From Amphiscolops sp. MND2022 (Eukaryota): a stretch of 62,000 nucleotides of DNA. Each line of letters begins with the position of its first letter. Position 1 is the first letter of the stretch. The notes under the pieces are model-generated. The model searched no databases. It was not told where the DNA came from and worked only from the letters and a program-made list of their open reading frames with translations. Below, piece after piece: positions 4,251-50,171 of the stretch. The stretch covers positions 2,542,001-2,604,000 of the forward strand of contig OZ076409.1 of the NCBI GenBank assembly GCA_964187785.1, written 5' to 3'. The position numbers and the translations under genes were made by a program.

Positions 4251-5025
4251 AAGCAAGCGTTGCAGGTTTCGTTGCTTTTCATCAAAACTCAACCTCGAAA
4301 CCTAACCAACTGCAGGAATACCACATTTTGGTGAGTGCCAATCTCCCCAAAAACAACCACCACTGTGAAGCAATCCGTATATGAAACAAAAACTTGAATT
4401 GTCAAATTGAAATATAAATGGAATTATCTCACTGGGTTATTATAGTTCTTTAAGCCCAGATTCAGCGACAAACCAACAAAACAGCGTCAGAGATGTTGTC
4501 CAGTTGTCTCAAATTCAAATAATTGCCATCTCATTTAAAAAGAACCGTGCGTGCTGAAAGAGATTTGGTGTAGAGAGAGAAAGATTTTGTGCCTATCTTA
4601 CATGGAGGGCGCGTCACTGAAAGGAGTTTGGGTGTCAGTACGCTGCAAGCTGCAGACCCTCCTTACAAAGTCGAGACTGGTCCCATAAAACAGCCTGGAA
4701 CACATCGGTAATAGAAGAGAAGTTTATAGGAAAATGATTGTCAAAATATAGGGTGTCCGGAAACAAGTCGAAGCAACTGGGTTGAATTTCAAAGTATTGA
4801 CAAAGATCGACAAAAACGTTTTTAAAACCACAACGAATGGACTCGTATCGAAACATTGAAATTCATTATTGCAGTCGAAAAGCGATAGAATTCTTCGGAT
4901 CGAAATTCACGAAATTGAAATTGACTACAAACGAGATGACAAGCAACGTATTTATGAAGATTACAACATAGATTATGAGAAGAGTTGGTTTTGTAAACAT
5001 CATATAAAAAGTATAAAACGTGCCT

Positions 5026-5192
5026 CGGATATGTCCTTATTTCCTATAGTGCCCCACGGCACCTTGGGGCTGCTTATGATCCCATCTTGCTAAGCGAGGT
5101 CGAACAGGAGCAAAGACCCAGCGAGAACGGAGATCATGAAGCGATCGTAGTGAGAGCTGGTCTATGCGACGGTGAGGTCGAGCGTGCATACA
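5026..5192. repeat. Diverged extra copy of the foldback-element arm
   Basis: CGGATATG...CCCATCTTGCTAAGCGAGGTCGAACAGGAGCAAAGACC matches 1599-1690, then continues as the reverse complement of ~1213-1286. Confidence 0.85.
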
Positions 5193-8001: not shown

Positions 8002-8625
8002 TTATTGATCAAATATTCTAGAAAAATTGCCAAACTTAACTTGAATATTGTGATAATCCTCCACTTCCTCTGCGTCGGACTCTTCGTCCGAATGTATAGT
8101 TACATCTACATCAGATTCGCATCTGAACAATGGTTTAGCAGGATGTTTCAGGTCTCCCATTTTAGAAGCTTGTAGAGGATAATCGTCGTTTTCTGAGTCT
8201 GAGTTATAGATGTGAGATGCGTGTACTCCAATAGACCTATTAGTTTTGGATCCCGAAGGCTGTATGTTTTGTATATCATCCATTTCAGATCTTGGGTTTG
8301 TTACTGTTGATACACTTTTATTAGATTTTATCTCCTTCAGGATTGCATCTAGTTTGTTCTCCATTTCTTCTCTCATTTTTGTTATTCTATCATTGTCCTT
8401 TTGTTCAAAATTCTCAGTCCACGCTTGTATTTCATTGCTTAATTGGCTAGGTTCAATTAATTGGTTCCTAAGTTCATCTTTGTCAAGGTTTCCATGGATA
8501 TTAGATTCGGCATTTGTCAAAGTAATATTACCTTGGGTTGATGTTTCTACCTGTGTTTCATTGAGTTCTTTTTCTGGAGACGGGGTCTCCAATCTCCTGG
8601 ACCTTCTACTTCTTTTGTTCCCCAT
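8002..8625 (-). CDS. 3'-LTR copy of the LTR-encoded Gag-like N-terminal ORF (reads out into the flank)
   Basis: ATG at 8625 (MGNKRSRRSRR...EDYH); near-identical to the ORF starting at 18942. Confidence 0.5.
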   Translation of the reverse strand: MGNKRSRRSRRLETPSPEKELNETQVETSTQGNITLTNAESNIHGNLDKDELRNQLIEPSQLSNEIQAWTENFEQKDNDRITKMREEMENKLDAILKEIKSNKSVSTVTNPRSEMDDIQNIQPSGSKTNRSIGVHASHIYNSDSENDDYPLQASKMGDLKHPAKPLFRCESDVDVTIHSDEESDAEEVEDYHNIQVKFGNFSRIFDQ

Positions 8626-9712
8626 CTTTCTCAAAGGAAAACGATATTTTGGCTGTTGGGGAAGAATTTGAATTTATTCAAAAGAATTATCTAAAGACAA
8701 TTCGGGAGATAAAACAATGTTAGTAAAAAAGACTGCTTTCAAAAGACCAGGTTGAAAAGTGAGCAACTGCTTGATGAGAGAGATAAAGTTCGAATGAATG
8801 GTCCCTTCAGTTTTCCAAAAAATACAAAAAGGATGACAATCACATTTACAGGTATCATTATTTAAAGAGCTAAAAACAATATAACGTCAAAATCACATCA
8901 TTCTATTTATATCCTTTAAATCACACTACAATGACACCCTAAATATTATCAAGGGACCGTGAAAATCCTAGGAAAACAAGGCTAGACGCTGTATAATACG
9001 TTTCAAGTATCATTAGATGAATTAAACGCTACATGACTTCAAAATGATGAGAGTACAGCTAAAAATGCATAATGACGTATATGCGGTATTCCCTGTACCG
9101 CAGGATAGCGTATACAACATGTAAGCATCAACATTCAATAACGCACAATAGCACATACACTCCATAATCCATATTGCACAATCGTTCATACTTCCACTGC
9201 GAAAACCGCATGTTGACGTACATACGATAACATAAGAACTGCTCAACAATGTATAATTGCATTGTAAAAACGCATATTGCCGCATATGCAGTTTATCCAA
9301 AAACGTATATTGTCTTGTAGTTAAAAACGTACAATGCCGCATATGCGTGATTCAAGTTTACGTATGATGACGCATATAAAATATTCTAAAAATGACTTTT
9401 GACGCTTATACGTCACAACATTTACGGCATATTGACGCATAATAAGCACGGAATTCATAGCATAGAGAGTTTTACTCTAATATTTGTAATGAACCATGTA
9501 TTTTAGCGCCTTCTTACATGAATTATCTTTCAATAACAGCTCAGGAAAATCTCACAATGACCCAAATATACAAAATATATCTAGAATTTACATGATTTGA
9601 TGAAAATGAAGAGAAAAGAAACAAAAATATCAGTATTTAGAATGTTTGTCGAAGTCGTTGGTTATCTTTTACTGATGCACTCCGGACCCATCGCATCTTT
9701 GGGGCTGCGACA
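8049..9712 (-). repeat. 3' LTR of element A (1664 bp)
   Basis: TGTGATAATCC...GCTGCGACA; about 20 differences from 18366-20027 by manual count; preceded on the minus strand by purine-rich AAAAACGAAGGT (PPT-like). Confidence 0.96.
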
Positions 9713-10665
9713 ACCTTCGTTTTTAAAGATAAACAACGCAGCTTCAAAACCGTCGATGAAAGCTCTCGACCTCACTCCACAATCTCTGACTGTTTCCCCA
9801 TCATAGGCAGTTGCTCCAAGATAGTCCCCGAGGGTCTCTAACGCAATTTGATCGAAAGTGCGACCACACCAATGACAGTATCCGGAAACGTTGGGCATGA
9901 CCGTGGGAAACAGCCGGAAGATTTGTCCTTCGTTGGCTACCATCGCAGGAACGTTGGGGCAGTGTAGGATGTTGAATGGGAATCCAAATTGGGTAACTTG
10001 TTGAGTTGTTGAGATGGGCCAATAAAATTGGCAGAAACATCCACCATAGATCTAGGGGGCAAATGTATTACCATGAGTGTGATGTCCCCTACAGCTGGGT
10101 ATTGCGGTTCTGTTGACACGAATGCATTATGTGAATGTGTACCACCTGCTTCGTACGCTGAAGGGTTTGTAATCCCTTGGTCATTCGTTGTATTGATTTG
10201 CTGAAAATTGGAAGATTCTTGTGAGAAGTTCAGTGGGTATGTTGGTATTGGTCTGATCATCTCATTTGATTGTTGTCTGGGAATCCTAGGCGTGGGCAAA
10301 ATAGCAGCGACGGGTCGCCCGTAAATGTTTAACTGTCTTTCTGGTGCTCCGGTGGAGTCTCTCGGCGACATGTCCACTTCTTTAAATTCTGAGTCTATGA
10401 AAGACAAGGAGGAAGCAGAAGGCGAAAGTGGACTTTCTTCAATCAACTCCATGATCTCCCTTTCAATAGTGGTGCCAGCGATATCAATGGTCCCTTGTCG
10501 ATCGACTGAGTTCGAAGGAGGGAACAAAGCGACTGTCGCTGATCCCACAAAAGCGGCCATGATATTAGATCCCATAGTGTTGATTCTGAATCTTTCATTT
10601 AGTTGTGCGATATTGCCAGGTTCCACGACAAATTCTTCTCCGGACTCACTTGATATATCGATCAC
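9662..10665 (-). CDS. Sense accessory ORF(s) of element A: low-complexity acidic N-part plus a CxxC-containing C-part; frameshift or overlap near 9940-10050; ends inside the 3' LTR
   Basis: ORFs 9937-10665 (242 aa) and 9662-9943 (GYCHWCGRTF); the second frame is open upstream to ~10050 (QFGFPFNILHCPNVPAM). Confidence 0.6.
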
Positions 10666-12150
10666 ATCAGGGGAAATGGGCGAATAACCCAGATCTTCAG
10701 TGATGTTAGATTGTGTTGGATTCTTTATTTTGAAGATGTATTTATGAATTAAGGATCAACAAGAGGCGAAGTTTTGAAATTAGAGACAACTGAACTTAAA
10801 GTTATTGTAGACCATATGGTGATATCTTTTTCAGTTCCCCCTTTTCTTCGACAAAAACCCGCGCAAAAGTTGAGTGTCATGATTCTCAGGGTTTCACTGC
10901 TTCCTTATTTGGTCTCTGCCCTGACGCTAGGATTTGGATTCAAGAAAATTGTCGTGATTTCTTGTAACTCAACGTAAACAAATTCCATTTAAGGCATTTC
11001 TTAGGAGGATGTCTTCTTCACCTCAACCCTTTGGCGGTGTTTCATTTAGTTTAATAGCTAACAAACAAAATTATGATCATCATAAAAGGATTACATGACT
11101 CTCCTTCCGTTATATGAAAATATAGTATAAAGGAAACATATAATCATCTTACATGACTAAAATTTAGTTTTCCCAACAAGATGTTCGAAACTAAAAATTC
11201 AAGCAACCATATTGAAATAAACATCAGTTTATACGTTTTTGTTTGTAAGTTTTACTTTAAAAGCGCATTGTAATCAGTAATTGTTTGGGGGAGTTGTCCA
11301 TTGCCATTGAGTAACCAGTCACCTTTCGTTTCTTTCCAATACCCACTCTAACACCGTTGTGTGTGGCTATCGTGCATCGTATTACGTAACATAATTGTTC
11401 GGTCTGTTCTGTTGCCGTTCGTGTGGTTCAGAATACCTCTTTATACTCCGCTATGGTAATTCCGCATTATACCGCGTAACCACTTTGTGAATCCGCATAT
11501 TACAGTATAATCATCTGTAGTTGATCCGCATGTTGATGCATAATCTCATGTAGCTCTGTAAATTGTGTTGCACGTGGCTATGGTAATTCCGCATAATGCC
11601 GTATGTTCATCATTGCTTGGTATGGGCATTGACGCTCACTCACGTCCTGTAGTTCGTATACTGACGTATGTTCGTCACAGCCTAAATCGTATACTGCCGC
11701 GTGCTTGTATGTATTGAAGTTTATATATTACGTCATCTAACCATCTCTGCTTTGCGCATAAGTAGGAAGTGATTTGTGGCTGTCAATTAATCAATCTATC
11801 ACCCTGGCAGTGGTAAATGACATTTTAATTGACCAATCAGCGTTCAGTTCGAACAAGCATATTCAATAACTACATGTTTCATTTGCTTCTTTGCCTCGTT
11901 TTGTTACGCCACGCCTTTGATTATTTCAACAGTTTCTGCAATCTGCTTAATTTTAAACTTTTTTAATCAGTCTTTTCGTCGTATATCATAGTTAGTTTCC
12001 AGTTATTTTGTCTTTTCTCGTACTCCCCTCAATCCAGGGCTCCTAAGTTTAATTTCAATTCCTCACTCATCTTAACTCCCGTATTTAATTGTTACCATTC
12101 TGAATTATTTATTGTACTTTCAACACCCTTCACACTCATTTGTTCGAGAG

Positions 12151-15100
12151 ATGGATTCGAATTCAAGGCGGAAATCCCGGAAGGATATGCTGTCTCGTAA
12201 ACACTTCACTTCTTGCGGCTACAAATCTCCGACTACCGCTACTCCTGGTAAGTTCGACTCATTTTACTCTTTCGAGTGAATTTTGTTTCTGTCTAAATTT
12301 TTTCCTGATCGGTAATTTTTAAAAGATGAAAAGCTGGCCAGGCTAACATCTATTTTGAAGCTAGAGTACTACAATAGCTAAATTTCTCTTCGCGGAAGCT
12401 TATCAACTTCCGGTTTGGATTTTGTGACTTCCGAATTAGCTGTATTTCCGCTTTCTTTTACGGTAATGCTAAAACAGAGATCATTTGTTTTGAAACCAAT
12501 CCGATTTACTCAGACGGTGACGGTTTGATTGTTTTAGTCGAACTCGGAGCAACAGAGAGGTCTCCTGGAAGATCCCCTACCAAGATATATACCCCATTGG
12601 AAGTCATTTCCCCAGCTATCCAGACAAACAATCCTGGTCCTTCCACGTCTGTATTGCCCCATTCTACTGCCGAGGAAACTCTCGTCCCAAAAAATCCCCC
12701 AGCAGAAGAAGGGGTGCCGGATTCTGTCGTTCGAGACGATGATTCGTCAGTAGTTGTGCTCCATCAAACTTGTGAAGGGATTGAGCACCACGTGGAACAG
12801 CCCCTCGGAGCAGAACAAAACGAGAACACTCAAACTCAAAGTTGTGACACTCCTCCTCCACCTGCGATGGATTTGTTTCCTGGGGAAATATCTCAAGAAT
12901 TGCTGGAAGGGATTATGGCAGCTGGAAGTTCCCACAAGTCTTCTCCTTTTAGTCGCTATATCCTTGATCGTTCTCACGAAGAAGAGATTACCTCCCCTCC
13001 TCACCACAATGCTGAACCGGAACCATTTGCTCAAACTAATCTTACTAATACCCCGACTGAAAATCTTGTGATCGATGAAGGAGAGATGATGCCTCAAGTG
13101 AATCCAGGGCGAATCAGCATCACGAGAATTGAGATACTTGCCTTGTCTAGGGTACTAGACCGATTACCTCCTGCTCTTCTGCATGGTGAGGAAGCCGAGT
13201 GGGACCGACCGATTTCGTTAATGGTCACAAACGAACCCGTGGGAAACCAAGGAGACACAACGAATGTCCCCAATCCCAATGCAGCAAACAGTTCCGAGCT
13301 GCCTATGGTGCCTTACCCTCCAACAGCTGGATCTTCTTTTGTACGAGGGAAAAGGCAAAGACCTAAATACTCCCTGAAAACCCATGTTCAGGAAACATCC
13401 TGTCTTAAAGTTTTCGGCTACTGGGCCCCTTGACAAGGAGAAAACACCCTACAAAGGGTGGTGTAGGGTCTGCAAAGTGGAAATATCCCTTATGAGCAGA
13501 GGGGTTTTAGAATTAATGTCCCACTAACGTACTGAGGGCCACATAGTAAAGGAACACAGGATTCGCATGGAAGTTCCTGGAATGCCAATCTTCGATCGGG
13601 AAGAGAAAGAACTGCAAGGAGTGCCTCTCAGCGAGGCTAAAAGAAAGGCGAAAGACACCTACCCTATTGCGCCCCAACTGGATCCTCGCCGGCCCTTGGT
13701 AAACCAAAACTCAGTGCCTGATTTAGCCAGTCATACCAGCCCTTCCGAAGAAGTTCTGTCGCAAATTTGCATCCTTGAGTTCGGGTTGCACTTTGGAGGC
13801 CACCTAAATAGTCTGACTGGAGTCCATGATGAGTTGGTACGACACCTCCCGAGTGTTCAACAAGCTACATCACTCAACTGGAGCGAACATCGTATTTTTG
13901 TAAGTAAATTCTCCTACTTTCCAATTTAAGTTAGCGTTCTCAACCAGGAAATTCTACCCATGATCAAATTGTCATTTGAGTTTCTGAGTTTTATTTTGTT
14001 CCCAAGGAATCTTGGTGTACATGTTCCGAGAGCTGGTAAATTATTGCGTGACTGCAATTTCATCTTCTGGGGTCTATTCAATCATCTTCGATCATGACCC
14101 CACTCACGTTCGTCTCTTCGTGTGCTTCTGGACAGGAAATGTACTCTACCGTGTCTGCATCGGTACTGGCCCCCGAGGGGTTTTGATTTCCTGACGCATT
14201 TTGGATTTATTTTCATCGTTTCTGAGCCTACTCGAGCAACCTCCTTCTTGCATCAGTTTCCTTGGGGGTGGAGGCAAATTAGGCAATTGCTTGGCTTCGA
14301 CACTGCCCGGGAACCGAAGACCGAAAGTTGTCAAAACATATGGACCTGCTGATTTTGAAAAGTCTCTTGAAAAGCCCATAACCCAAATTATCGAGAGGGA
14401 CGACTTCCGGTCGATACTCGACTACCTCCTGATTAAGCTTCGTACAGCTCTCGATCGAGACTGGCTCCATTCATTGCCGACTTTACACAAAGTTGGTATT
14501 TTCCTGAGAGCATTTGTCTTGGTTGGTATGCTGAAAATAATACCAATTTTTCGTTTTTAGTGTGTCATCACGCTCGACTACTCGCTCCATGAGGCGTCCA
14601 TCATTATTGAACAGCTTTCTGCGAACTGGGACCATGTGTTGCAGCATCTCAATCAGGTTTCGCGACTGCCAATTTATCGCTTCCACATGAGAGAGGTCGG
14701 TTTTCTTTATCACGTATTACAAAAGTCCGAGTTTCAATTTATTTCATTCCCCACTGCTTTTAGCCAAACACCCTCGATGAATGTTTCAAGCTGGACACAG
14801 CCTACCTGGCCCGTCTATTCATCATATGATGTGTGATTGACCATTGTCTTTATATATTTAGTCTTTTCGGGACAGTTTTGTTAACCTGACTAACTTTTTG
14901 CATATTATGTGCGTTAACTTCCCAACGTCCAATTTCTCTCCTAATTCCTAGTAGTTGCGTCTCTTTTTCCACGTTTTGTTGCTTTGACCGTTACTACTGC
15001 CCTGCTTTATCCGGTACGAACAAAACACTGCAAAAACACGCAGTGGCGTTTGGTCATTGTAACTCGTTCTGTGTAACGACATTGTAATTTGCTCTCTGTC

Positions 15101-16860
15101 ATGCTGAAACCGCATAGTGACGTATAGTTGTTATAGCTCGTTCCGTGTAATGATGCATCTCATCGATGTCTCGTTCTTTGTTCTACTGAATCCGCATAAT
15201 GACGTATAGTCATCACACCTCATTCCGTATAGTGATGCATTACCATTGTGACTCGTCCTTCACACTGCTGCATCCGCATAATGACGTATAGTCATCACAC
15301 CTCATTCCGTATAATGATGCATTACCATTGTGACTCGTCCTTCTCACTGCTGCATCCGCATAATGACGTATAGTCATCACGCCTCATTCCGCATGATAGC
15401 GTATAGACATTACAATTCATTCCAATCGTTGACGTCATACCTTTTCTTGTAAGATGCGTATAATGACGTACACTCACCATCTTTCTTCCTGTACTTTGAC
15501 GTATAGTAATTATACACGTGTTCGTATAAGCTTTGCAGCGAGTTCCGTATAATACCGTATACTCGGGATAGCTTAAAGTGTGTAATGGCGTATATTTGAT
15601 AAAAACTTGATAAAAAAATATGACGTATATTCTTCGTAAATCAACATGGGGAATAGTGTATAGTATATCTTTTCGACGTTCTTCTTGTTGTATTTTTCGT
15701 ATATCTGACTTCAGGGGAATGTTTAACTGGATTCCATGTTGTTTGTTTTAGATAATTCAGCTTTCTCCGAATTGGAAGGTCAAATGGATAGTGGATTTAG
15801 ACTTTTCAACAAATTTGCTGTGTTTCTGTATTGCCAACTGCAGAATATTCTACCCGATCAAACTTTGGGAAGCATTTCTGTTTGGGACAATTATTTGTGC
15901 CTCGATTTGGATCGAACCGACCTTCCCTTCAAAACTGCGTCGGGATTCGTTTTGAATGTTGACTATCATAATTTAGTGATCGCTAGCAAATTGCCCCGGC
16001 CGGGCAAACTCATTGATCAATCGAGTGCATTTTGCAAATTTTTTTGCAAAATTCTGCTGAAACATGAGCTTGTCAATTCAAATCTGATTAGAGGATTGTC
16101 GTCATTCGATTTTGCTGTTATGGTAGAAGGATCAGAGAGGCACTACGTTAGTGCAGTGGAAAAGCGCACAACCTATTTCGTTAATTCAGGATGGCTTTCT
16201 CCTAGCGATAAAGTCAAGTGTGTCAGCCAATATCGTTCTCTGGCTACCAAATTGCGGGCTGATTCTGTGGTTAAGGACGACAATTGGGTGCAATACCTTG
16301 CCTCACATTATGAAATGCAACGTCGACCGGACCTGCTTCATTTGTTTCGTTACGCTTGTCTCTGCTTGCCTCCATTTGTTGGCAAAGTTGATCATTTTGA
16401 AGTGCCAGTCCCAACATTATCATCTGATAAAGAGATGTTCCGATCGTGCGTGACTAGTCTGCAGCAATCTTACTTGAGCGTTCCGCATGTTTCCAGTTTG
16501 TACAGAGATCAGCGTTCAATTGGGCGAGCATTTCGCTTGTTGGGCAGAGGTCAGGACTTGTTGATTGACAAAAAATTTTCAATTTGGAATTTCCTCAATG
16601 GTAGTGGCCCGCGAAGAACTGCTCTACGGGGCAAACTTGAAGCTGCCTACAAGAGATCTGTCCTACAAGCTGAGAAAGTTGTTGTAGAGTCTGGTGGGAC
16701 CACTCTTAGTCTCAGTAGATCGACCAGTAATGCCAGTACTCCTTCTCCTGGGCCATCCCTTGGGCGACTTAGCGTGTCCGTTGCCCGATGCTCTGAAGAC
16801 GATTCTAGTAAGTCTGTTGCAGCCACCAAGCCAAAGTCTTCTAAGTCGCAGAAAAACTAA
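12151..16860 (+). pseudogene. Spliced antisense gene in element A (6 predicted exons, ~1,100 aa), zinc-finger / hAT-transposase-like, now disabled
   Basis: Predicted exons 12151-12247, 12538-13899, ~14006-14491, 14561-14695, 14764-~14875, ~15752-16860. Phase-matched GT..AG introns at 12248-12537, 14492-14560 and 14696-14763. C-x2-C-x16-H-x5-H at 13462-13542; YSIIFD motif; C-terminal W..P.L..L...LCLP. +1 frameshift at ~13378 and stops at 13525, 14192, 14827. Confidence 0.75.
15030..15420 (+). repeat. 82-bp tandem repeat (about 4-5 copies) in the last intron of the antisense gene
   Basis: CCGCATA(A/G)TGACGTATAGT recurs at ~15110, 15192, 15274 and 15356. Confidence 0.9.
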
Positions 16861-17046
16861 CGTTGGAATTCAACTTATTGTTTGATTGAACTTTAGTTAT
16901 TTGTATCACATTTTGTATTTATTTGTGATTTAGTAAGTCGTTCCATTATTTATTTGTCAGGAGCGTACTTGCTTGTTGAAAAGAAAAAAACAAGGACACC
17001 CGAATTGAAGAGGGGTACTGAAAAAGTGTTATTTGTTTGTAGTTTT

Positions 17047-18360
17047 TTAATATCTGTAAGAGTCTGAGAAGTTTGGGTTAGGGTTAGGGCGTAAGTTGTA
17101 TTTTTCACCACGAGTATTTATGGGTTCTTCTTGCAATGGGGTTTTTTGTGAATTTTCTGGAGTTTTTTGGGTTTGTGTATCTGGTGTCTTTTCTTTTGGG
17201 GTTTTTTGGGAGATTTTTGTATCATTATCTTGGATTTCTTGCTGGATTTCATCATAATTTTCTTCTTCGCGTTCAGTGGACTGTTCCACTGGGCTCCCCC
17301 ACTGTTTTTTGGAAATTCGAGGGAGGGAGGGTGGTTATTTTCAGGCGCATCAACAGATACGTATTCAATATCATCAGTGTTCTGTGTATGATCTGGAGGG
17401 CTGTCTTCGAAGGGATTAGGTCCAAAATTTGTGTTCCATGATTGAGCATATAAGTCATCATGAGCCACTGGCATTTGATCATCTTTTTGCCAATCGGATT
17501 CTCGGACGAAAATGTCAGCTAAAGGTGCGTGCGGTGTAAATTTCCTCAACCGAATTCGGTGTAAGAGTTGTGTTTTGTTTGTTCCTAGTCTCCTAACTAT
17601 GTAATTGTTGTTAGGAAGGACTTTTTCAACCTTGTAAGGACCCTGCCATCTGAATTCACGGAATGGTATTTTTGTTGCCTGTAGGTCGGCCTTCGGATTA
17701 GGAATGTAGCAGTAGTCCGTTGTTTCCAGCGGTGAGGCCTTGGCCTTCCTATCATAATAAGCTTTATATTTAAGATAGGATTGCATTACGTTCTTTTTGG
17801 TCTGGTCTAGTAATATTCGCATTCTTCGTTGTATTTCTTCTGCGACATCAGTTTGCGGCTGGTATTTCGGATTAGGATTATATCCTAACTTGTAGTCCAG
17901 TATGTTGTGTGGTATGAGGCCGTGAAAAACTCGTGAAGGCTCGCAACCAAGCGACGCGTGGTATGTTGTGTTGTGGTTTAGAACCGCTAATGGTAGAATT
18001 TATGCCAGTTATGTCGGAATTCTCCAGTTGCTGCTTCAAGTTGGGTTTTTACTGAAGCATGTGTTCTTTCCAGGAGTCCTATTGTTTGAGCGTGTTTCTT
18101 TTTTGCATGTTTAAGCTCAACACCTAGGACTGCTGTTACTTCGTGGGTTACTTGGGCATTGAATTGTGTTCCAAGGTCTGTGATTATGGTTGTTGGAAGG
18201 TATGTATGTTTGCATAAAATGTCCATTATTACTCGAGCGACTGATGTTGCGGTGATACGAGTCACTGGGTAAGCAAACAAGTATCGCGAGAAAACATCAA
18301 TTGCTGTTATTATGTGGTCGTATCCACCACTGCGTGGAAGGTTTGGTAGGATGTCCATTT
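17047..18360 (-). pseudogene. Gypsy integrase (DDE core + GPY/F), frameshifted, N-terminal zinc finger deleted
   Basis: MDILP..IDVFSRY..ITDLGTQF..IGLLERTH; WQGPYKV; C-terminal KYNLRPNP. Confidence 0.92.
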
Positions 18361-18942
18361 GACCATGTGATAATCCTCCACTTCCTCTGCGTCGGACTCT
18401 TCGTCCGAATGTATAGTAACATCTACATCAGATTCGCATCTGAACAATGGTTTAGCAGGATGTTTCAGGTCTCCCATTTTAGAAGCTTGTAGAGGATAAT
18501 CGTCGTTTTCTGAGTCTGAGTTATAGATGTGAGATGCGTGTACTCCAATAGACCTATTAGTTTTGGATCCCGAAGGCTGTATGTTTTGTATATCATCCAT
18601 TTCAGATCTTGGGTTTGTTACTGTTGATACACTTTTATTAGATTTTATCTCCTTCAGTTTTGCATCTAGTTTGTTCTCCATTTCTTCTCTCATTTTTGTT
18701 ATTCTATCATTGTTCTTTTGTTCAAAATTCTCAGTCCACGCTTGTATTTCATTGCTTAATTGGCTAGGTTCAATTAATTGGTTCCTAAGTTCATCATTGT
18801 CAAGGTTTCCATGGATATTAGATTCGGCATTTGTCAAAGTAATATTACCTTGGGTTGATGTTTCTACCTGTGTTTCATTGAGTTCTTTTTCTGGAGACGG
18901 GGTCTCCAATCTCCTGGACCTTCTACTTCTTTTGTTCCCCAT
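18310..18942 (-). CDS. LTR-initiated Gag-like N-terminal ORF (192 codons inside the 5' LTR) reading through the PBS; downstream gag lost by deletion
   Basis: ATG at 18942, MGNKRS; the frame crosses the LTR end as CAC A|TG GTC (EDYH-MV); coiled-coil-like ITKMREEMENKLDA. Confidence 0.6.
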   Translation of the reverse strand: MGNKRSRRSRRLETPSPEKELNETQVETSTQGNITLTNAESNIHGNLDNDELRNQLIEPSQLSNEIQAWTENFEQKNNDRITKMREEMENKLDAKLKEIKSNKSVSTVTNPRSEMDDIQNIQPSGSKTNRSIGVHASHIYNSDSENDDYPLQASKMGDLKHPAKPLFRCESDVDVTIHSDEESDAEEVEDYHMVKWTSYQTFHAVVDTTT

Positions 18943-20027
18943 CTTTCTCAAAGGAAAACGATATTTTGGCTGTTGGGGAAGAATTTGAATTTATTCAAAA
19001 GAATTATCTAAAGACAATTCGGGAGATAAAACAATGTTAGTCAAAAAGACTGCTTTCAAAAGACCAGGTTGAAAAGTGAGAAACTGCTTGATGAGAGAGA
19101 TAAAGTTCGAATGAATGGTCCCTTCAGTATTCCAAAAAATACAAAAAGGATGACAATCACATTTACAGGTATCATTATTTAAAGAGCTAAAAACAGTATA
19201 ACGTCAAAATCACATCATTCTATTATATCCTTTAAATCACACTATAATGACACCCTAAATATTATCAAGGGACCGTGAAAATCCTAGGAATCAAGGCTAG
19301 ACGCTGTATAATACGTTTCAAGTATCATTAGATGAATTAAACGCTACATGACTTCAAAATGATGAGAGTACAGCTAAAAATGCATAATGACGTATATGCG
19401 GTATTCCCTGTACCGCAGGATAGCGTATACAACATGTAAGCATCAACATTCAATAACGCACAATAGCACATACACTCCATAATCCATATTGCACAATCGT
19501 TCTTACTTTCACTGCGAAAACCGCATGTTGACGTACATACGATAACATAAGAACTGCTCAACAGTGTATAATTGCATTGTAAAAACGCATATTGCCGCAT
19601 ATGCAGTTTATCCAAAAACGTATATTGTCTTGTAGTTAAAAACGTACAATGCCGCATATGCGTGAGTCAAGTTTACGTATGATGACGCATATAAAATATT
19701 CTAAAAATGACTTTTGACGCTTATACGTCACAACATTTACGGCATATTGACGCATAATAAGCACGGAATTCATAGCATAGAGAGTTTTACTCTAATATTT
19801 GTAATGAACCATGTATTTTAGCGCCTTCTTACATGAATTAACTTTCAATAACAGCTCAGGAAAATCTCACAAGGACCCAAATATACAAAATATATCTAGA
19901 ATTTACATGACTTGATGAAAATGAAGAGAAAAGAAACAAAAATATCAGTATTTAGAATGTTTGTCGAAGTCGTTGGTTATCTTTTACTGATGCACTCCGG
20001 ACCCATCGCATCTTTGGGGCTGCGACA
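18366..20027 (-). repeat. 5' LTR of element A (1662 bp), followed by a truncated PBS starting TGGTCA
   Basis: Direct repeat of 8049-9712; TGG immediately follows the LTR end on the minus strand. Confidence 0.96.
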
Positions 20028-22074: not shown

Positions 22075-22204
22075 GCTTTATCACCACGAAAGACATGGAA
22101 GTTTCCATTTATTAGTTAGTCAAGTGTATCTAATTAGTAAACGTGTAATAGTAATAGGAGATATTGTTATGTAAACCGAACGTTGTTCAATATAAATATG
22201 ATGT

Positions 22205-22473
22205 TGTGCTGCTTTTAATGGTTGGTTATTTCTGATGGTGGTGTTATTCACAACTACTAAAAGCAGCTAAGAGACAGGCTAGCTAGCTAACTTTATTACA
22301 ACTAGTTCGAGGTATTAGAAGTAGAACAAAAGGGAAGTCAACCAAATACTGATTATTAGTTTTCTCTCTCTGAGGGAGTAGAGACTTACAGTCATTCAAT
22401 AATAAATAAATGTACATTCTAGAACATTCTATAAACATCTAAATACTATTGGTTATTAATGTAGATCAGTACA
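22205..22473 (-). repeat. 3' LTR of element B
   Basis: Direct repeat of 40139-40407. Confidence 0.97.
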
Positions 22474-22695
22474 TCAATCCCGGTTTCTAAATAAAATAAA
22501 ATTTTTAAGTAGCATCATTAATTAAAATGAAGAAAAAAAAATTTTGTTTAAATGTTCTTAGCGTTTCAGCTAGGTAGCATTTTTCATGTGATGGGTGATT
22601 GGCATAAGTCTCTTTAAGAGTGGTGTAAGTTCGACTCATTGGTGTACCTCGAATTGTCAAAATTTTGATTGACACCTCGTATGTGCGACTACAGT

Positions 22696-24078
22696 TCAAA
22701 AAGCGTCAAAGTGATCTTTTTCACTATGCTTTCGTCGGCTTGTTTTTTGAACTGGTAGATGCTCAATTTTATGCCTCTGTTGAAGTCTTTGAATGAACTT
22801 CGCATTGAACAAACGTGAGCAAACATCATACGAGTTAAAGGTAAAAGAGTCATTGAAAAATTTTGTTGATAAAATTTTTTCATTGAGTGTGAACAGTGGC
22901 TGAAAAGATATCAGGTTGTGATCAACTTTGGCGGGTTTGTTATGTAACAAATGTTGAAAACTTTGAGAATTTGGGTCTGTCATTATTCGAGTCTGATTTG
23001 AACAATGTGCTTGATCTATTTTTGAACTTGTTTTGTTGAAATTTTGAAAAGATTTGTTGTTAACATATGTGAACTTTGGATAGGATAGCACCGAAAAAAA
23101 ATTATTAATTATTCTTTAAAATTAAAGCAAATAAATATCGGTAAGGGTGCGAATAAAATGATTTTAAGGGCAAATAAATATGGGTGGGGATGAAATTTGA
23201 ATCAATAAATACATTGCGAATGTTTTCGGTATGAGTTTGAACCCTTTTAAATATAATCATGCACAATGTTTTTTCTTTGAGTTTCCTTTATTATTGATTA
23301 TTAATCTTCTTCGGCTGAGAACTGGATGGCTGAAGGTTGAAGATTGGAAGATGGATGAAGATGGGCAACTGTTGGGCTGCGATGAAGTTGGGAAGAATGG
23401 GTGCTGAGCTGTGACGAGCAATCGTTGTGGATGTTGGATTTGAAGATGGGGGTGGACGAGCGCTGTTGATGTCATCTGTTGATATTAGAAAGAGACGTAA
23501 GTATACGTTTTGTATGGGTAATTATCATCTAGAAGTGCTTCTGGAGGGTCTTTTTGAAGTTCTTCATAAGGATCGTCGTTATTGTCTGAACGCCAATAGG
23601 AATTTAGACGTTGTTTTTCCATTTCAGAACGCATTCTGTTAGATAGACTTCGTACTAAATGTTTGGGCTTGATGGTAGTATGCTCTGTTTGGGTAGTGGC
23701 GTCTCGTTGAGTTGAATATGTATCAGGTTTTTAATGAATTTGAAGATATTGTTCAAAGTTTATTCGTGTGATTTGGAAGATTTGAAACTTATTGAGCAAT
23801 ATCATTCTTGTAAGATAAGGATCTGCCTTTTTATCTGTTTTTAGCTGTGCATTTAATGTTGTTAAATGCTTTTTCAGAATCAGGGATCGTAATATCGAGC
23901 TGAGGAAATTGAAAGAAGAGGAGCTATTGGGCAATCGGTGTCACCAGAATTGAGTGTCGTCATATTGAAGAATATGAAGAAATTGTTGAAAATTGTAGAG
24001 GATTTCGTTGGAATTCTTTTGGATGGACAGCTTGAGAAGAGGAAGAAATGCTGATGAAGAAGTTGTGACGGTATTCAC
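22696..24078 (-). pseudogene. Decayed accessory ORF segments downstream of env
   Basis: Frame 24078-23485 is open except for two internal stops and begins right after a TTTTAG acceptor-like site; further ORFs at 23257-23475 and 22696-23091. Confidence 0.4.
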
Positions 24079-24485
24079 CTAAAATAGATTAGTTTGTTTA
24101 CAATAAAGTTCCTTTTTAAAATAGAATTTCATAGTTGATATTTTTTTGATGTAATTAGTGATGTTATATCTTTTTAATTTTAAGAATTAAATTGATGTAT
24201 TTTGGAAGTCTTTTGAAGGGTATTTAAATATCTTTCATATAAGTACTTGTTTGTTGCAATTGGTCCATTAAAAAGAGGAGCAATTGAGGAATTTTGTTAA
24301 AAATTTTTATGTCGCTATTGAACTTTTTTATACTATTTTATTTTAAAAGAGTATTTTAATATCAAGCATGTAATATAATCATGCATAGCAGGCATATGCG
24401 TGCAGACTCAATTAATTTTGACAGGTTATTAAGAGATTAAGTGATAAGTGTTAACAGTTTAAAGTTATTATCCCATAATTACCAG

Positions 24486-25655
24486 TTAAGATCGGTGCAT
24501 TTTTTCAATTGTGTAGTTGAATTCGTCCAAAGATGTGCGAATACACAAAGCTGATTGGCTAATTCTTGTCGTATCAAATACGATATTTTGTAATATGCTT
24601 CGAGCTTGTTCAAGAGTATTTACGATTTCGGCAATTGTTATAAGAATATCTCGGTTCGGATGATGATAAGGTTTTATGATGTTCGTCAGAAGTGAAAGTA
24701 GATGAGAAATAATGAAAATTAGTTCATTATTTGAATATCCTTTTTTGGTCAATGCGTAAAAATAAGATTTTTCACAGTCTCTCAAAGGCTGAGAGGCTAT
24801 GTGTTGAAGTGGAGGAAGAGGTTCAGATATATTTTGAGGTATATCTTCCTGTAGTAGCGAATCGTCGTTCAGAATGAGGTATTCTTGTGGTACAATGATT
24901 GGTCTTTTTGGGTTATCATTTGGAAGAAAAAGAAAACTTTGTTTAGGCGGATCATAATTTCTACGTTTTCCTTTTGTTTTGGTATGATCTATCAAATATT
25001 CAGAGTTGAAAGTGAATGGCGACGTATATTTGGAGTTGAAGAATATATAATTATCAGGCTCTTTGTATTGGAGAAATTTCTGATAAGTCATGTGATGAGC
25101 TTTTTTGATTTGATATGGCAAAAAATTTGCATCATTTTCTTCGGTTCGAAGATCATATGGAGATGGTCTGAGGAAGTTGTATTGGAGTGAGAAAATTTTC
25201 ACTTTATTGTTTAACCACAAATCATATGGGGTGATCAACTTTGAAGCGATTGAAGTATGATAATCATTTTTAAATTCTCTGATGATGAATTTGTATTTTG
25301 TTGGAATCATATATAACGAGGTTAACTGAGATTGAAAGGTAAATTGTTTTGATGATAGGATAGGAACTAATTCACAATCTCTATCTTCATTTTGTTTAAC
25401 TGGTTTTTTGAAAGGAGGGCAAGCGCCAGATTCCATAAAAGGTTTTTCTGCAGTTATATCTGGATACTTTCTTTTTTGAGATCTTGCGTTAACATGATCT
25501 CCTTGTTCAATAGGAATAGTTTCCATGGGGTCTTGAGAGTTTGAAGATGAATGATTATCTTCGTTAACATTTTGTTGAAAAGTTATGTTCAAAGGGGATG
25601 CAAGCAATTCAGAGGAATTAGAATTAACTACATCAATTCCGGGCAAAGATTCCAT
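24486..25655 (-). CDS. Accessory ORF of element B, 389 aa, unknown function
   Basis: Intact ATG-initiated ORF in AT-rich DNA, sense to pol and env; NLS-like QKRKYP and PPFKKP. Confidence 0.75.
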   Translation of the reverse strand: MESLPGIDVVNSNSSELLASPLNITFQQNVNEDNHSSSNSQDPMETIPIEQGDHVNARSQKRKYPDITAEKPFMESGACPPFKKPVKQNEDRDCELVPILSSKQFTFQSQLTSLYMIPTKYKFIIREFKNDYHTSIASKLITPYDLWLNNKVKIFSLQYNFLRPSPYDLRTEENDANFLPYQIKKAHHMTYQKFLQYKEPDNYIFFNSKYTSPFTFNSEYLIDHTKTKGKRRNYDPPKQSFLFLPNDNPKRPIIVPQEYLILNDDSLLQEDIPQNISEPLPPLQHIASQPLRDCEKSYFYALTKKGYSNNELIFIISHLLSLLTNIIKPYHHPNRDILITIAEIVNTLEQARSILQNIVFDTTRISQSALCIRTSLDEFNYTIEKMHRS

Positions 25656-26089
25656 TATTTAGACTTGCGTGTTTTCGTAGAGCTAAAATAATGATTATAA
25701 CGTTTAATTATACTGTTTTTGATTATGAAGAAAAATTTTGTTGTCTTTTCTGTCCATTAAATTGTTTGTTAAAATGAAGTTTAAATTGTACTTACAATAT
25801 GAGAGTAACTGAGTCAATTGTGGGTTGAAAACATCAACAATCACAGTGGCATCTATTCCAAGAACAGAAACTTCTGTAATTTCGGTCTTTTAGATGGACT
25901 GAAGATCCAATTGAAGTCTTCTGGTTGAGAGTTTAGTTGTGATGGGCAAGTGAATTTTCAGTTGAGTTGAAAGGAGAGACTGGTTCAAGTGAGAATTTGG
26001 GTTTGAATGAAAGTTTAACTGAGGAGAATTTTGTTGATAATTTTTTGAACTTTTCTGAGGTTAATTTGTTTATGGTTATTGCTTTTTAG

Positions 26090-28640
26090 CTAGGAGGGAT
26101 TAAATTTCATAAAGACTTTAGCAGGACTTTCCGGTACAGCTATTACATTTGGTGATATTGGGTCATAGTCCTGAGAATTAATATCGTTGACATTAGTTGG
26201 GTGTGTCTTTTGCGGTGATTGAAATGTTGAATTCTTACTGGAGTATTTAGGAGGTAAATACAGGGAGTCATTATCAGAGTATCTTCTCAGTTTATTGTGT
26301 AATTCTTTTTCCGGCAATAGGATATTATCATTTTCACTTGTTGTGATTTTGTGTTTAGTATATATCCGTTTTCGTTTTCCTGTATTGTTCAAATCGGTTA
26401 TCATTTCCGATGTAACTAAAGTAAAAAATCCATCGGCTATTGAAATGTTGCTTTGGAGATTATAGTTTATGCTAATTGTTCTGCAGAATTTGAGTAAAAA
26501 TGTTAAAACTTCTCTAATGAGAAGAAATGTTGAAAAATAAATTCCACATTGTGTTAAAACATAACATGGATATCCAAAGAAAGTAATGAATGCTTGACTG
26601 AACCAGTCAGGGTTGAAAAGTGGTAAGAGGTTTAACAAGTGGTCATGTACTCCATTCCTTAAATGACTATAAGGATTATGTCCTGAGTAGGAATGTTTAT
26701 CAATATGAACTGTGAAGAAATCATAGCCTAATGATTCTCCAAGTAATTGAAGAGTTGTGTCTGAATGTTTAGCAAATAATACTCTGTTCCAGAATTGATC
26801 TAATTTTGCATTTGAGTATATACCGGCATCTTGGGCAGTAAATGTATTAGGAGTGATTGTTGTTTTAATTTGGGTAAGTTTAAACATTTGTGGTGCTTCT
26901 CGTTTGAGTGGTTCTGGTGTTAACACATAAAAATCTCCGTCGTTTGAATCTGGGTCTAATTCGATTATATTTTGTTGGTTATTTCCACATTCAATTGGTG
27001 TTGCATAATTAAAAGTTTGTCTTGTTATAGGATCAACATACACTATAGTTTCTCTGTAGTGTATGGGAATTCTATCAAAGCATTTATCTGCCTTGTACAG
27101 TGGTGATATAAAATGAGGGTAATCATACAGATATGCTGTAGATCCTTCAACGTAGAGAAAGTTACTACGATTTCCAGTTAAAAGAAAACCGGCTAATTGA
27201 GGATTTTTAACTGACATAGCTAAGATTGTTAACAATTGAGTTCTTTCCAGTTCACATATTGTATGAAGGGTGTTTAGTTCTTGTACTGTCATGGATTTAA
27301 ATACATGATTTATGGTAAAATCAATTTTTCTATTTATGTGGGCATCATAATCTAAAGTGGCGAAATTGTCTGATATTTTCAATGCAGGGAATATATACCT
27401 TTTATTTGAGTCGTCATATTTTATGTTTCCACTAATTGTTTGATCAATTATTGAGTGTGGTTTTGGTAGTCCTGTGTTCATATCAAAACCATCTAAGTAT
27501 GTAACAAAGATGTCTTCATATTTTGTTGAAAATAATGGTTCAGGTTTTCCACAAAAGGTTTGTGCAATTGGGTATATTTCAAATCGAGAAAGGCTTGGAT
27601 TGCTTACTTTTGATTGTGGTGTTTTTACATTAGGATATCTTGTTCCCTGTATTCCTTCGGTTTGGAGTTTTTGTGTGATGTTTGAAGTTTCAATGAAGGT
27701 ATCGGTTTCTATCCAATATCTATTTTTAATTCGTGTCATTCTACCAATGAATTCTTGAAGTTGAGATATGAGGCAAAATTTTTCATCAAACCATGTTAAT
27801 GTATATGGAGTTTTTGTCGTTGGTTTACAAAATCCTTCTGAATGATAGCATTGTAATATGTGTCCATCATGTATTAATTGATTGTTTTTATCATCATAAT
27901 CTATTGCGGTGTTAACAATTCTGGGTAATTAAATGTTCTCTGTCGGCTCGACATCGGGAGTATGTATTTTGTGGAATATTAACTATCCAGTTGGGATAAT
28001 TTTCATCGAACACGAAGGTTCCAATATGCCATGTGTTCAACTTTTTTACTCTAAATGGTGTTTGAACTCAATCGATTGTGTTTTGATAGTTACTATCGTC
28101 GAACAGTGAGAAAGAGCTGTGTGTATTGTAATTGTTTAGTTCTTCGCTAGCAGTCGCGTTTGAATAACTTATCATGTTTTTGCATTCAATAGGGTCTAAT
28201 ATTTTTGGAAGTTCTAATGTGTTTTGTCCCCATTATAAACGATCATATCGTCTACTAGATGTGAATGTTTGTGAACACCAGACCTTTTCAGTCTTTATAT
28301 ATGCTTCGCATTTAAAGGCTTTTATTCTTTTGGCTTTTGCTCTAACATAAACTGTTGCTTGGGTTTTTGTGTGTTGTATATCTGAGGGTGCTTGTTTACA
28401 TGGTTCAACATTTAATAAACTGAATTGTCTTAAGTTGTTTTGTTTTGCACAATCATAATGGGATACCAATAAGTTTAAAATGTTGGGGTCTTGGTCTGAA
28501 ATATGATTTTCGGAATTGGTTGTGTCAACTTTAGGAACAGTTGAAGGATGAACTAAAGAATGAACTATGTGTATTATATACATGTATTTAACAACATGTA
28601 TTATGTATACTAGGTATAAGTTAAAGGTTGTTTGGTTCAT
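26090..28640 (-). pseudogene. env: Envelope glycoprotein, chuvirus-G / herpesvirus-gB-like (class III fusion type), with a stop and frameshifts at ~27740-28233
   Basis: Hydrophobic N-terminus; LVSHYDC..FSLLNVEPC; ICELERTQLLTILAM..AGFLL..GSTAYLY..KCFDRIPI..YVDPITR..PIEC; TM-like FITFFGYPCYVLTQCGIYFSTFLLI; cytoplasmic tail. Confidence 0.85.
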
Positions 28641-28857
28641 GGTTAAAAGATTGGTTAAAATATACTTCTATAATTAAGTCCGGAGTAGGGATTAAAGAAG
28701 TTTATATGTCCTGTTCTAATCTCAGGTAATTCTGCGTCACAAAGATAAGAAAAGGAGGTGACTATGAATGGTGATGGGGTTGTTTTGTGTGCTACTCTTG
28801 TTGAAAGAGAGAAAGGATGAGGTCCTAACGAATTGAATGTGACTTCTACTTCAAATT

Positions 28858-30123
28858 TTAATGTGAGTTGTTGTTCTTGTAGTCTTCGTAATTCTCTTTG
28901 TTTTCTTGGGTTGAGAGTGAGCTATTGTTTATAAATCTTGCAGGTAATACTGTGTATCGAGGATCTTCGTTAAGCGTACGAACAATTTTTGAATTAACAC
29001 GGATGGGATATTCGTGAGGGTTTGGTGTTGGAGGTCTTGAGAAATCTTCTAAAAAATATTCAGGTAGTTGTATAGAAGAGTTTGATGCTATTGAACTTGG
29101 TGAGTAAACTCGTGAAAAATTAGCTGCGCTATCTGATATAGTTATTGGGTCTTCAGAAAGAAGAGAAGCTGTTTCAAATCCTGATGTGATTTGAAATGGT
29201 AGTGATAAAGAAGATGGTATAGTGGGTTGAGATGAGGAAAGAGAAGAAGTGTCTAATCTGGGTTGGGCGTGCTGTCTAAGTAGTCTTGAGTTTGTACTTG
29301 AACTAGTTAAAGATTGTAATTCCTGAGAAATTCTTTGTTGTTGAGATCTAAGGTTATAGTTATGTCTTGGTACTCTAGTACTAGCAGTTGAGTCAGAATC
29401 TTTATCTTTATTATATAGATCTGTTAGAGAAGAGGTAGTGATTGAATGTACACGTTCTAATTCAAGTTTGGGATATATTTGAGAAAATGTGAATGAACTT
29501 AGTTCAGATGGTGAAGGAATTGGGTGTTGTTGTGATTTTTTCACTGATGCATTCGATGAAGGTTCTGGTAAGAATGTTATTGGAGTATGACTTGTTGTTG
29601 GTAAATTAATGTCTTGTGGTAATGTGGGTAAAGGAGTTTTTCTTTTTGTTTTCGTTGCGGTTGGTACTTTATGTGGACAAGAATTTATGTATTGTAGAAC
29701 TGAGCTGGGATCAGGGATATGAACGGGACGAGTGGTAGTTATTGGTGGAAGAGGAGGTCTATTTAAAATATTTGAAGTATTTTGTGTATTTGGTGTTGTG
29801 AATGTTTCATCATTAGAGTCAGAAACTGGTGAACTTGTTTCTGAAAATGTTAGATTTTGTGAAATAGGTTGTGATTGAGTTGTTATTATTAGTGTTTGAG
29901 TTTGGGTTATAGGTGTATTGGTGGGTGTTGTTGGTACTCTATCAGGAGTATATGGAGCGGATGGACTGGGGTTTGAGGATGAGGAATCCAGTATGTCTGT
30001 ATCTGAGTTTAAATATGCTGTATATTCAGGTAATCTTTGGAGTGAATGTGTTGAACTAGAAGATGAATTATTTGTGGTTGATGATGGTGAGTGAATATGT
30101 CTATCAATTTTGAAGTCTTTGTG
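28858..30123 (-). CDS. Ser/Thr/Pro-rich ORF between integrase and env (~420 open codons, no ATG)
   Basis: The ORF-track entry 28858-29544 stays open by manual translation to 30123; contains PSAPY, RPPLPP and RHNYNLRS. Confidence 0.6.
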   Translation of the reverse strand, partial: HKDFKIDRHIHSPSSTTNNSSSSSTHSLQRLPEYTAYLNSDTDILDSSSSNPSPSAPYTPDRVPTTPTNTPITQTQTLIITTQSQPISQNLTFSETSSPVSDSNDETFTTPNTQNTSNILNRPPLPPITTTRPVHIPDPSSVLQYINSCPHKVPTATKTKRKTPLPTLPQDINLPTTSHTPITFLPEPSSNASVKKSQQHPIPSPSELSSFTFSQIYPKLELERVHSITTSSLTDLYNKDKDSDSTASTRVPRHNYNLRSQQQRISQELQSLTSSSTNSRLLRQHAQPRLDTSSLSSSQPTIPSSLSLPFQITSGFETASLLSEDPITISDSAANFSRVYSPSSIASNSSIQLPEYFLEDFSRPPTPNPHEYPIRVNSKIVRTLNEDPRYTVLPARFINNSSLSTQENKENYEDYKNNNSH

Positions 30124-30271
30124 TTATGATAGTTTGTTTCAGTTTGTAAATTAGTTATTTTTATATCAATTAGGATTTCTTTCTTTTATTATCACTTGTG
30201 AAATATTTTTCATTCAATTTCACATTAAGCTTCAAACTTTCTTTCTTTCTTTCAAAGTTTCTTTCTGTATT

Positions 30272-38100: not shown

Positions 38101-38281
38101 GTTCTCTAATAAGGGGTATTGTTTCAATTGTTTGAGGTTCATTTTCAAATGGGAGTGGTTGTGTATAATGGGAAATATTGTTTTGTAGAAATGGGTTTAG
38201 TTCTAATTTTACAACTTTTGCATTCTTAATGACGGGAGTTTGAAAAGGTAGAAAGGTTGTTATTGAGGAGTTCATTTTCAA
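35121..38281 (-). pseudogene. gag: gag of element B: long N-terminal region, capsid-like domain, CCHC knuckle, RS-rich tail (frameshifted)
   Basis: ORFs 36701-38281 and 36165-36656 (PMKPFDG..EEYLQQVE..LTGTALDWY..F.QLFKKQF); CNYCHKKNHSISNC; RSPYRSPYR / RSRSRTP. Confidence 0.85.
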
Positions 38282-39619: not shown

Positions 39620-39900
39620 TGTGTCGAAGGTGTTAGAAAACCTTGATAAACGAGACGAACATCAAAGAACTGTTTCAACAGCTCCCGGATTAGCTGTGAT
39701 AAATCAGTATAGAGAACAGAACTGTGTCACTTGTGGATAAATCAGTTTGGAAAGAGAAGAGAAACAGAACTGTGTCACAATGGATAAATCAGTCTGAAAT
39801 GGAACCGTTTCGACGTGTTAGAAAACGTGATAAACCGGTATGGCAAGAAGAGTAGAAGGGAGAACCGTGTCAACGTGTTAGAAAACGTGATAAACCAGTA
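39620..39900. repeat. Imperfect 50-60-bp tandem repeats in the 5' UTR of element B
   Basis: ACAGAACTGTGTCAC..TGGATAAATCAGT x2; GTGTTAGAAAACGTGATAAACC x2 with a 60-bp period, plus a variant near 39630. Confidence 0.8.
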
Positions 39901-40120
39901 GTGAAGAAAATTTGTTATAATTTAATTGATTGTTGTAGTTGAGAAATTGTATGTCTTACGATGATGTATTTATTGATGAAATTCAGAAAGTCACAGACTA
40001 GATTTTCAAGAAATTCTAGAAAGATTTCACTGCAATTCCAGAGAATTTCAAAGATGGAGAGTGGTATTTGTATTATTGTTGAGAGAAGAGAAATCATCCA
40101 GGAGAAAAATGCAAAAAATT

Positions 40121-40135: not shown

Positions 40136-40138
40136 AAT

Positions 40139-50118: not shown

Positions 50119-50171
50119 TACAGTTGACCTTAAAACAGATTATGCAATACTATTACCGTAGCTAAAATTTC

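Follow-up and report, generated by a model that had tools for sequence, protein, structure and literature searches.

Element A, an internally deleted Ty3/Gypsy-type long terminal repeat (LTR) retrotransposon of 11,979 bp, lies on the minus strand (8049..20027) of a 62,000-nucleotide stretch of Amphiscolops sp. MND2022 DNA (contig OZ076409.1 of assembly GCA_964187785.1, positions 2,542,001 to 2,604,000), hereafter the window. It carries three arrays of a 15-bp site, CGYAT-(A)(A/T)TG(A/C)-CGYAT, present in 34 copies, or 26 with one LTR counted. The sites are organized into a higher-order unit in which two of them stand exactly 33 bp apart, a feature absent from the first-pass annotation of this DNA and new here. 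The chances are about even that the arrays serve as docking platforms for a protein that the element itself encodes in antisense, a dead hAT-transposase-like protein that would have kept its N-terminal finger.

The weight-matrix consensus of the element A sites is (A/T)(T/A)C-CGYAT-A(A/T)TG(A/C)-CGYAT-A. The exact pattern CGYAT-N5-CGYAT occurs 12 times on the plus strand and never on the minus strand, and every match falls within 8049-20027. With one LTR counted there are 10 matches; over 300 dinucleotide shuffles, searched on both strands, the average was 0.013 and no shuffle had more than 1. When the gap between paired CGYAT sequences was scanned from 0 to 30, peaks appeared only at 5 (12), 18 (10) and 28 (14); every other gap gave at most 2. 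Sites were called by an iterated position weight matrix (PWM): those of element A on the plus strand all score at least 14.4 bits, and none was found on its minus strand at or above the reporting floor of 9 bits. Outside element A, i.e., in the remaining 50 kb of the window, the PWM found no plus-strand site and a single minus-strand site (9.9 bits) versus 2.85 expected from shuffles. A de novo count of spaced 4-mer pairs recovers the motif in element A and nothing comparable in element B, a neighboring Gypsy-type element, or in the left flank. The first-pass annotation had described a motif recurring in one orientation in element A and not noticed elsewhere. The four 15-mers that it quoted are found where it placed them, all strong sites are on the plus strand, and its absence elsewhere holds for the other 50 kb of the window.

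The sites form three separate arrays, 2-4 kb apart, two of which are in promoter positions. Array 1 (9066..9440, plus) lies in the U3 region of the 3' LTR and has eight strong sites, at 9066, 9099, 9142, 9207, 9271, 9328, 9361 and 9426, plus weak sites. On the minus strand this LTR has a TATA-like TATAAAT at 8911 and an AATAAA at 8678, and array 1 is upstream of both. Its copy in the 5' LTR (19381..19755, plus) is 270-650 bp from the 5' end of the element and upstream of the TATA-like position. Array 2 (11463..11702, plus) is situated between two head-to-head accessory genes; it has six strong sites, at 11463, 11494, 11527, 11590, 11655 and 11688, and is directly followed by a TATA-like stretch (11722-11727). 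Array 3 (15111..15630, plus) occupies the last intron of the antisense gene. Its 12 strong sites make six pairs at 33 bp, a half site stands at 15624, and part of the array is formed by an 82-bp tandem repeat (15102-15391; 3.5 copies, 87% matches). None of the 26 sites is in the inferred coding intervals, which make up 59% of element A, and none of six short open reading frames (ORFs) over or beside the arrays is present in the protein collection searched. On the minus-strand RNA, a hairpin with a 10-bp stem overlaps the second half site of each 82-bp unit (15198-15216, 15280-15298 and 15362-15380).

The main rival explanation assigns the arrays to a host transcription factor, as an enhancer or insulator, and gives the antisense protein another role. 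Array 1 is in the classic U3 position, upstream of the TATA-like box, and a motif common to families fits a fixed host factor. Reiterated host-factor sites are common in LTR elements, e.g., the Su(Hw) sites of gypsy, and the motif contains what we take to be a bZIP-like TGACG, with a presumably GCM-like ATGCGG on the other strand. ONSEN is activated by heat-shock factors (PMC12859917). A host factor is nevertheless rather unlikely. Good sites are missing from the other 50 kb of window DNA, which includes two other LTR elements; the rigid 10 + 33 bp geometry exceeds that of clusters such as the CGATA clusters of BEAF, for which a clear spacing rule was not seen in the excerpted account (PMC5021357); and the strong conservation of the finger, described below, is left unexplained.

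Exactly 33 bp separates adjacent sites in 8 of 19 intervals (four sites of the 82-bp tandem copies dropped). In random placement the commonest interval averages 2.1, and 8 was reached in none of 20,000 trials. The 33-bp pairs are present in all three arrays, and in arrays 1 and 2 weak sites fall on a lattice of 31-33 bp. Since 15-bp sites are paired at 33 bp, the unit consists of four half sites at 0, 10, 33 and 43. A coding origin of the 33-bp period was rejected because intervals of 31, 32, 43, 49, 56, 64, 65 and 67 bp are not multiples of 3 and the six short ORFs at the arrays have no counterpart in the protein collection. Strict helical phasing over whole arrays was also rejected, the arrays not being locked to one period.

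The 18-bp spacers of eight independent pairs are 41% identical (0.39 between arrays and 0.47 within, with a null of 0.26 +/- 0.02), versus 77% and 63% for the two sites of a pair, figures that are inflated because the sites were picked by PWM score. Spacer identity above chance (26%) and below that of the sites points to common ancestry from one unit, with motif and length kept. The earlier statement that the flanks differ while the motif persists is right in that spacers are more diverged than sites; it does not hold for 15102-15391, which is tandemly repeated, or for the spacers to the extent that they are alike. Shared ancestry of the units (spacers 39-47% identical) also suits a view of the arrays as neutral remnants of a minisatellite with a 33-bp unit that slippage and conversion had spread. 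The 82-bp tandem expansion is recent, and PWM selection exaggerates site identity. Such an origin is very improbable, however: the three arrays, 2-4 kb apart, are all non-coding, the sites are more conserved than the spacers, the exact spacer length is kept, and there is a hint of motif conservation in distant families.

Element A is a recent insertion, read on the minus strand, and a copy of a family of about 30. It has a 5-bp target-site duplication (AATAT). The 5' LTR (18366..20027, minus; TG..CA) and the 3' LTR (8049..9712, minus) are 98.8% identical, differing by 18 substitutions, of which 12 are transversions, and two indels. One of the indels hits the TATA-like box (8906), where the 5' LTR copy is one base shorter. 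A TGGT resembling a primer-binding site (PBS) adjoins the 5' LTR at 18365, and the integrase is joined directly; its core and a C-terminal remnant (17118..18365, minus) are frameshifted near 17990 and match the Pfam families rve (E 3.6e-11) and Integrase_p58_C (E 4e-4). The gag ORF starts inside the 5' LTR, near 18950. Unusually, about 190 gag codons are inside the LTR (18366-18990 and 8049-8673, minus) and the reading frame continues across the PBS. In family members gag is 553-568 aa long, with zf-CCHC above the cut-off and Ty3_capsid below it. TG..CA LTRs, a target-site duplication, a PBS-like site, and Gypsy-type gag and integrase are thus all found, and they place the element in the Ty3/Gypsy type. 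Reverse transcriptase and RNase H are deleted in this copy, which is non-autonomous because the gag ORF is joined past the PBS to integrase.

Between the integrase and the 3' LTR are the two head-to-head accessory genes. The second accessory ORF (9713..10725, minus) is on the sense strand. Its product in family members measures 349 aa (clusters of 19 and 3), and this copy carries a frameshift near 10000. The ORF extends into the first LTR bases and belongs to no Pfam family. It has a disordered N-terminus and a C-x2-C near the end, and is a second candidate partner of the arrays. Weak PF14372 matches fall on the coiled region of gag, below the cut-off, and were disregarded. The cassette co-occurs with gag: among the matches listed, all 11 other gag-bearing contigs are also in accessory clusters and 8 of the 11 are in antisense-gene clusters, with contigs paired by their length alone and up to 15 members listed for each cluster. 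No inverted repeat of at least 40 bp was found in element A, and none of that size around the antisense gene. A one-off nested hAT insertion was rejected because there are no such repeats and the accessory genes co-occur with gag.

The antisense accessory gene (12151..16860, plus) is spliced, as predicted from splice consensus and frames by eye and from tblastn of natural relatives. Its approximate exons are 12151-12247, 12514-13899, ~14006-14491, 14561-14695 and 15752-16860 (plus), with a probable small exon predicted at ~14955-15050 (plus). The gene is broken in this copy by a frameshift near 13400 and stops near 13525 and 14192; in relatives of 469 aa, the finger exon is open. Any action on the element A copy would therefore be in trans.

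The candidate DNA-binding domain (13384..13545, plus) consists of a basic stretch and a zinc finger, W-C-x2-C-x16-H-x5-H. The finger-exon search yielded 18 of 128 candidates, and 17 were aligned, the rearranged P0094 being left out. All four ligands (C315, C318, H335 and H341) are invariant in the 17 relative clusters, and three of them had been left out of the search query. Conservation in the family peaks at the finger, whose mean pairwise identity is 83% versus 25% for the disordered N-terminal part; every pair of the 17 clusters is at least 72% identical there. An antisense zinc-finger gene, as the first-pass annotation had postulated, exists in element A. Pfam BED gives no match for the finger, whose C-x2-C..H-x5-H pattern is conserved in 17/17. 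Its structure model was too poor for use (predicted local distance difference test, pLDDT, 37.5), and the ESM Atlas gave no usable match for the last exon and only scores below 0.9 for the finger region. In the relative P0316, the gag N-terminus from the LTR and the zinc-finger exon form one in-frame fusion, meaning that the cassette of that copy is on the sense strand or rearranged.

The antisense protein is probably of hAT origin. The last-exon model (71 of 94 sequences, pLDDT 61) has a helical region (15752..16400, plus) that aligns by fold to residues 358-570 of the Hermes transposase (8edg; Z 5.3, root-mean-square deviation 4.6, 150 residues aligned). Hermes ranks 2 of 48,161 chains, and its alignment is the longest among the matches listed (the others reach at most 100 residues). 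The order of finger, short helical domain, beta-rich segment, helical insertion and CLCL helix resembles what we take to be the hAT layout, and the catalytic positions were placed by that presumed layout. In the middle-exon alignment (26 of 27 matches), the putative first catalytic position is Q in 15/26 and E in 6/26. After the CLCL helix there is no conserved acidic residue, the best column having E in 25/71. Neither the conserved DDE triad nor the terminal inverted repeats (at 40 bp or more) of an active hAT were found. The alignments thus suggest a disabled DNA transposase without conserved catalytic residues. Sequence searches of the PDB with four alignments returned nothing relevant.

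Relatives of the last exon form 94 clusters among 2,282 candidates, mostly 50-60% identical and nearly all from ENA contigs; at the 50% level there are 323 representatives. Clusters for the exons of the antisense gene have 30, 18 and 34 members. In searches for the DNA of relatives, none was confirmed among 254 and 133 metagenome-contig pattern matches, 367 viral contigs or 53 prokaryote genomes, and the paired-motif pattern had no match in the viral contigs. As a proxy, peptides that gene callers had read into the intron preceding the last exon were scored with the PWM. Of 46 such extensions 34 were kept, after removal of 4 cluster mates, 2 near duplicates and 6 judged coding. Six of the 34 are motif-compatible at p 0.05, and 4 of the 12 that have at least 30 aa (Fisher 5e-4). 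Reversed and reverse-complement control matrices gave 0/34, and peptides from other introns of relatives 0/11 and 0/24. The carriers are 44-62% identical to the antisense protein of the window. The best peptide, THNGAY in P0062, is the top forward scorer in 104,009 residues and is located 113 nt ahead of the exon, close to the distance at which array 3 ends in the window; the match in P0272 is only 36 nt before the last exon. These scores, obtained post hoc, give a hint that relatives may keep the motif in the same intron. In the distant relatives P0285, P0291 and P0230 the last intron is seemingly absent or short, which means that array 3 is not shared by all relatives. In element B the motif is missing, and relatives of the antisense gene have no tblastn match there.

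If the antisense protein binds the arrays, every finger would recognize a single CGYAT half site. A site would comprise two half sites separated by one helical turn, and a pair of sites some three turns apart (33 bp) would be the working unit of an oligomer, binding the paired sites via several fingers as Hermes does on subterminal repeats. The protein, supplied in trans by intact copies, would occupy U3, the head-to-head accessory promoter and its own last intron. Family copies would thereby stay transcriptionally open, the protein being an activator or anti-silencer with self-feedback. Counted in favor of these platforms are the non-coding position of the arrays (0/26), their single strand, the fixed 33-bp pairs, and spacers more diverged than sites. 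Also counted are the promoter positions of two arrays, the invariant finger ligands, the Hermes alignment, the unconserved catalytic positions, the co-occurrence with gag, the motif-compatible peptides of relatives, the lack of both motif and gene match in element B, and the precedents of hAT BED fingers and TnpA. A broader proposal, tentative and somewhat doubtful as a whole, is that an animal Gypsy clade captured a hAT transposase in antisense long ago. Spliced and catalytically dead, it would have become a shared activator or anti-silencer reading a 10 + 33 bp code written three times per copy, and dozens of families with their deleted derivatives would form one trans-acting regulon.

Several observations weigh against binding by a hAT-derived protein. 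A Z of 5.3 is within the range common for helical proteins and ties with an unrelated chain at rank 1 (a 79-residue match), Foldseek of the last-exon model gave no match at E 0.001, and neither the antisense gene nor its relatives match Pfam BED or hAT. In the coding-tail control of the peptide scores, 4/24 passed p 0.05 (Fisher 0.06). The Fisher value of the main comparison becomes 0.09 when all 42 non-redundant extensions are used, and 0.004 for the 16 long ones, and in P0230, a distant relative, read-through of the short last intron yields no motif match. A helical period common to all three arrays was not found (0.89 at 10.9 bp, 0.94 at 10.7 bp, and at most 0.52 in the intron). The uniform motif orientation also fits an RNA signal. 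Finally, CpG is weakly depleted, and an anti-silencer may therefore find little methylation to act against: the CpG observed/expected ratio is 0.94 in the LTR, 0.87 in the element interior, 1.05 and 0.99 for the two flanks and 0.68 for element B. Among the 18 LTR-to-LTR substitutions (6 transitions in all) none is a CpG transition. The suggestion in the first-pass annotation that the sites are methylation-sensitive finds no support in these ratios (0.94 in the LTR, ~1.0 in the flanks) or substitutions. At the CpG of the motif, C-to-T and G-to-A changes stand at 7:1 (5:1 with tandem copies collapsed), numbers too small for use.

The single orientation, and the location of all three arrays within the genomic transcript, would also be expected if the motif were a repeated signal on genomic RNA for export or packaging, read by an element-encoded protein like CERV of Cer1. 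U1-like fingers are able to bind RNA. A spliced LTR-element gene that controls RNA export has precedent (PMC10309623). An RNA signal is improbable, however, as the minus-strand fold of the three arrays gives no signal over shuffles (z -0.34, -0.00 and -0.97), no array has an Rfam match at E 1, the spacings of 10 and 33 match turns of B-DNA, and two arrays are at promoter positions. A structured RNA was rejected on the fold scores and the Rfam result.

The protein and its arrays might instead act at integration, by tethering or compacting complementary DNA or by targeting, a role nearer to an ancestral transpososome than to transcription. Array 1 lies at most 650 bp from the element end, like hAT subterminal repeats (PMC10368747). 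Two arrays, however, are deep inside the element and per LTR only the U3 end has one; this role is very improbable.

Elsewhere in the window, element B (22204-40407, minus) is a degenerate Gypsy-type element with 270-bp LTRs (98%) and without the motif; PF24664, the Monjiviricetes fusion glycoprotein, is matched by its envelope-like ORF at 26090-27928 (E 1.4e-16). At 1213-1690 and 5022-5192, reverse-transcriptase-like fragments are flanked by inverted repeats of 186 and 130 nt, and a 221-bp direct repeat is present at 1 and 2275. A small LTR-like remnant with 195-bp repeats and integrase-like pieces (44594-46670), a 19-bp tandem array of 8 copies (49957-50112) and ORF fragments like those of long interspersed nuclear elements (50166-53648) were also seen.

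Among known systems, VANDAL/VANC of Arabidopsis is like element A in having an element-encoded accessory gene and a short motif repeated densely, in one orientation, within introns and in intergenic and terminal non-coding DNA, with tandem expansion (PMC5735166). The targets of VANC21 have this layout: arrays in one orientation, in non-coding parts including an intron, and tandemly expanded (PMC5735166). The parallel with VANDAL/VANC drawn in the first-pass annotation is borne out for this layout, the intron here being that of the candidate gene, and the dense same-orientation non-coding arrays are seen in one copy only. It fails for the finger, which is not diversified between families. VANDAL is a plant DNA transposon for which binding and demethylation are proven, and its motif and protein diverge by family (PMC5735166). 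Element A, in contrast, is an LTR retroelement with an antisense gene, a finger 83% identical across families and a fixed 10 + 33 bp spacing, and its CpG statistics show no sign of strong methylation. No divergence by family was found in protein or motif, the finger being at least 72% identical and the motif hinted at in distant families.

TnpA of Spm resembles the proposed regulator in being transposase-derived, in having lost catalytic residues and in needing dense motif clusters in cognate copies. It serves the DNA transposon of its origin, whereas the element A protein, class II-like, would serve an element of class I (bioRxiv 10.64898/2026.08.24.746577). Neither 'retrotransposon' nor 'LTR' is mentioned in the excerpts of that preprint. 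The Retand Gypsy elements of plants share several traits with element A: ORFs on the antisense strand, placed between pol and the 3' LTR, with tandem arrays close by, copies that are defective, and a proposed DNA-binding regulator (PMC11963269). They differ in being a plant lineage, in a TRP28 without described similarity to other transposable elements, and in family-specific tandem repeats with no common spaced motif; a motif in the LTR is not described in the excerpted text (PMC11963269). No Pfam match of the TRP28 family was found among the searched proteins.

Transposases of the hAT group have an N-terminal finger, short reiterated sites and oligomeric binding, as in Hermes and as proposed for the antisense protein, and hAT BED fingers bind short subterminal repeats cooperatively (PMC10368747). 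Unlike them, the antisense gene has no terminal inverted repeats (arms of at least 40 bp) and no conserved catalytic residues, and its carrier is an LTR element. Domesticated ZBED/DREF (PMC3606216) and BEAF (PMC5021357) offer a comparison of finger proteins, carried in those cases by the host and not by an LTR element. CERV of the Caenorhabditis elegans element Cer1 is likewise a spliced regulatory gene of an animal LTR retrotransposon; unlike the proposed protein it acts on RNA export, and DNA motif arrays or a transposase origin are not mentioned in the excerpts (PMC10309623).

A full-text literature search, with most subscription journals and Repbase reports outside its coverage, found no description of such a system. 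According to a 2019 review, explicit instances of active escape by transposons are very scarce, and the examples named in the excerpts are from plants (PMC6719617). The predicted protein, the 15-bp site and the 33-bp geometry make the escape question directly testable in an animal LTR family. If the proposal is true, a transposase would have been domesticated by another transposon and not by the host, placing a class II protein in a class I element, and a mechanism would be available for why antisense ORFs and repeat arrays go together in other Gypsy lineages, a pairing so far unexplained. In layout the element A system resembles Retand, and it would work like VANDAL/VANC and Spm/TnpA should binding hold; it is a member of neither kind, as its finger is not diversified by family and no TRP28 was found.

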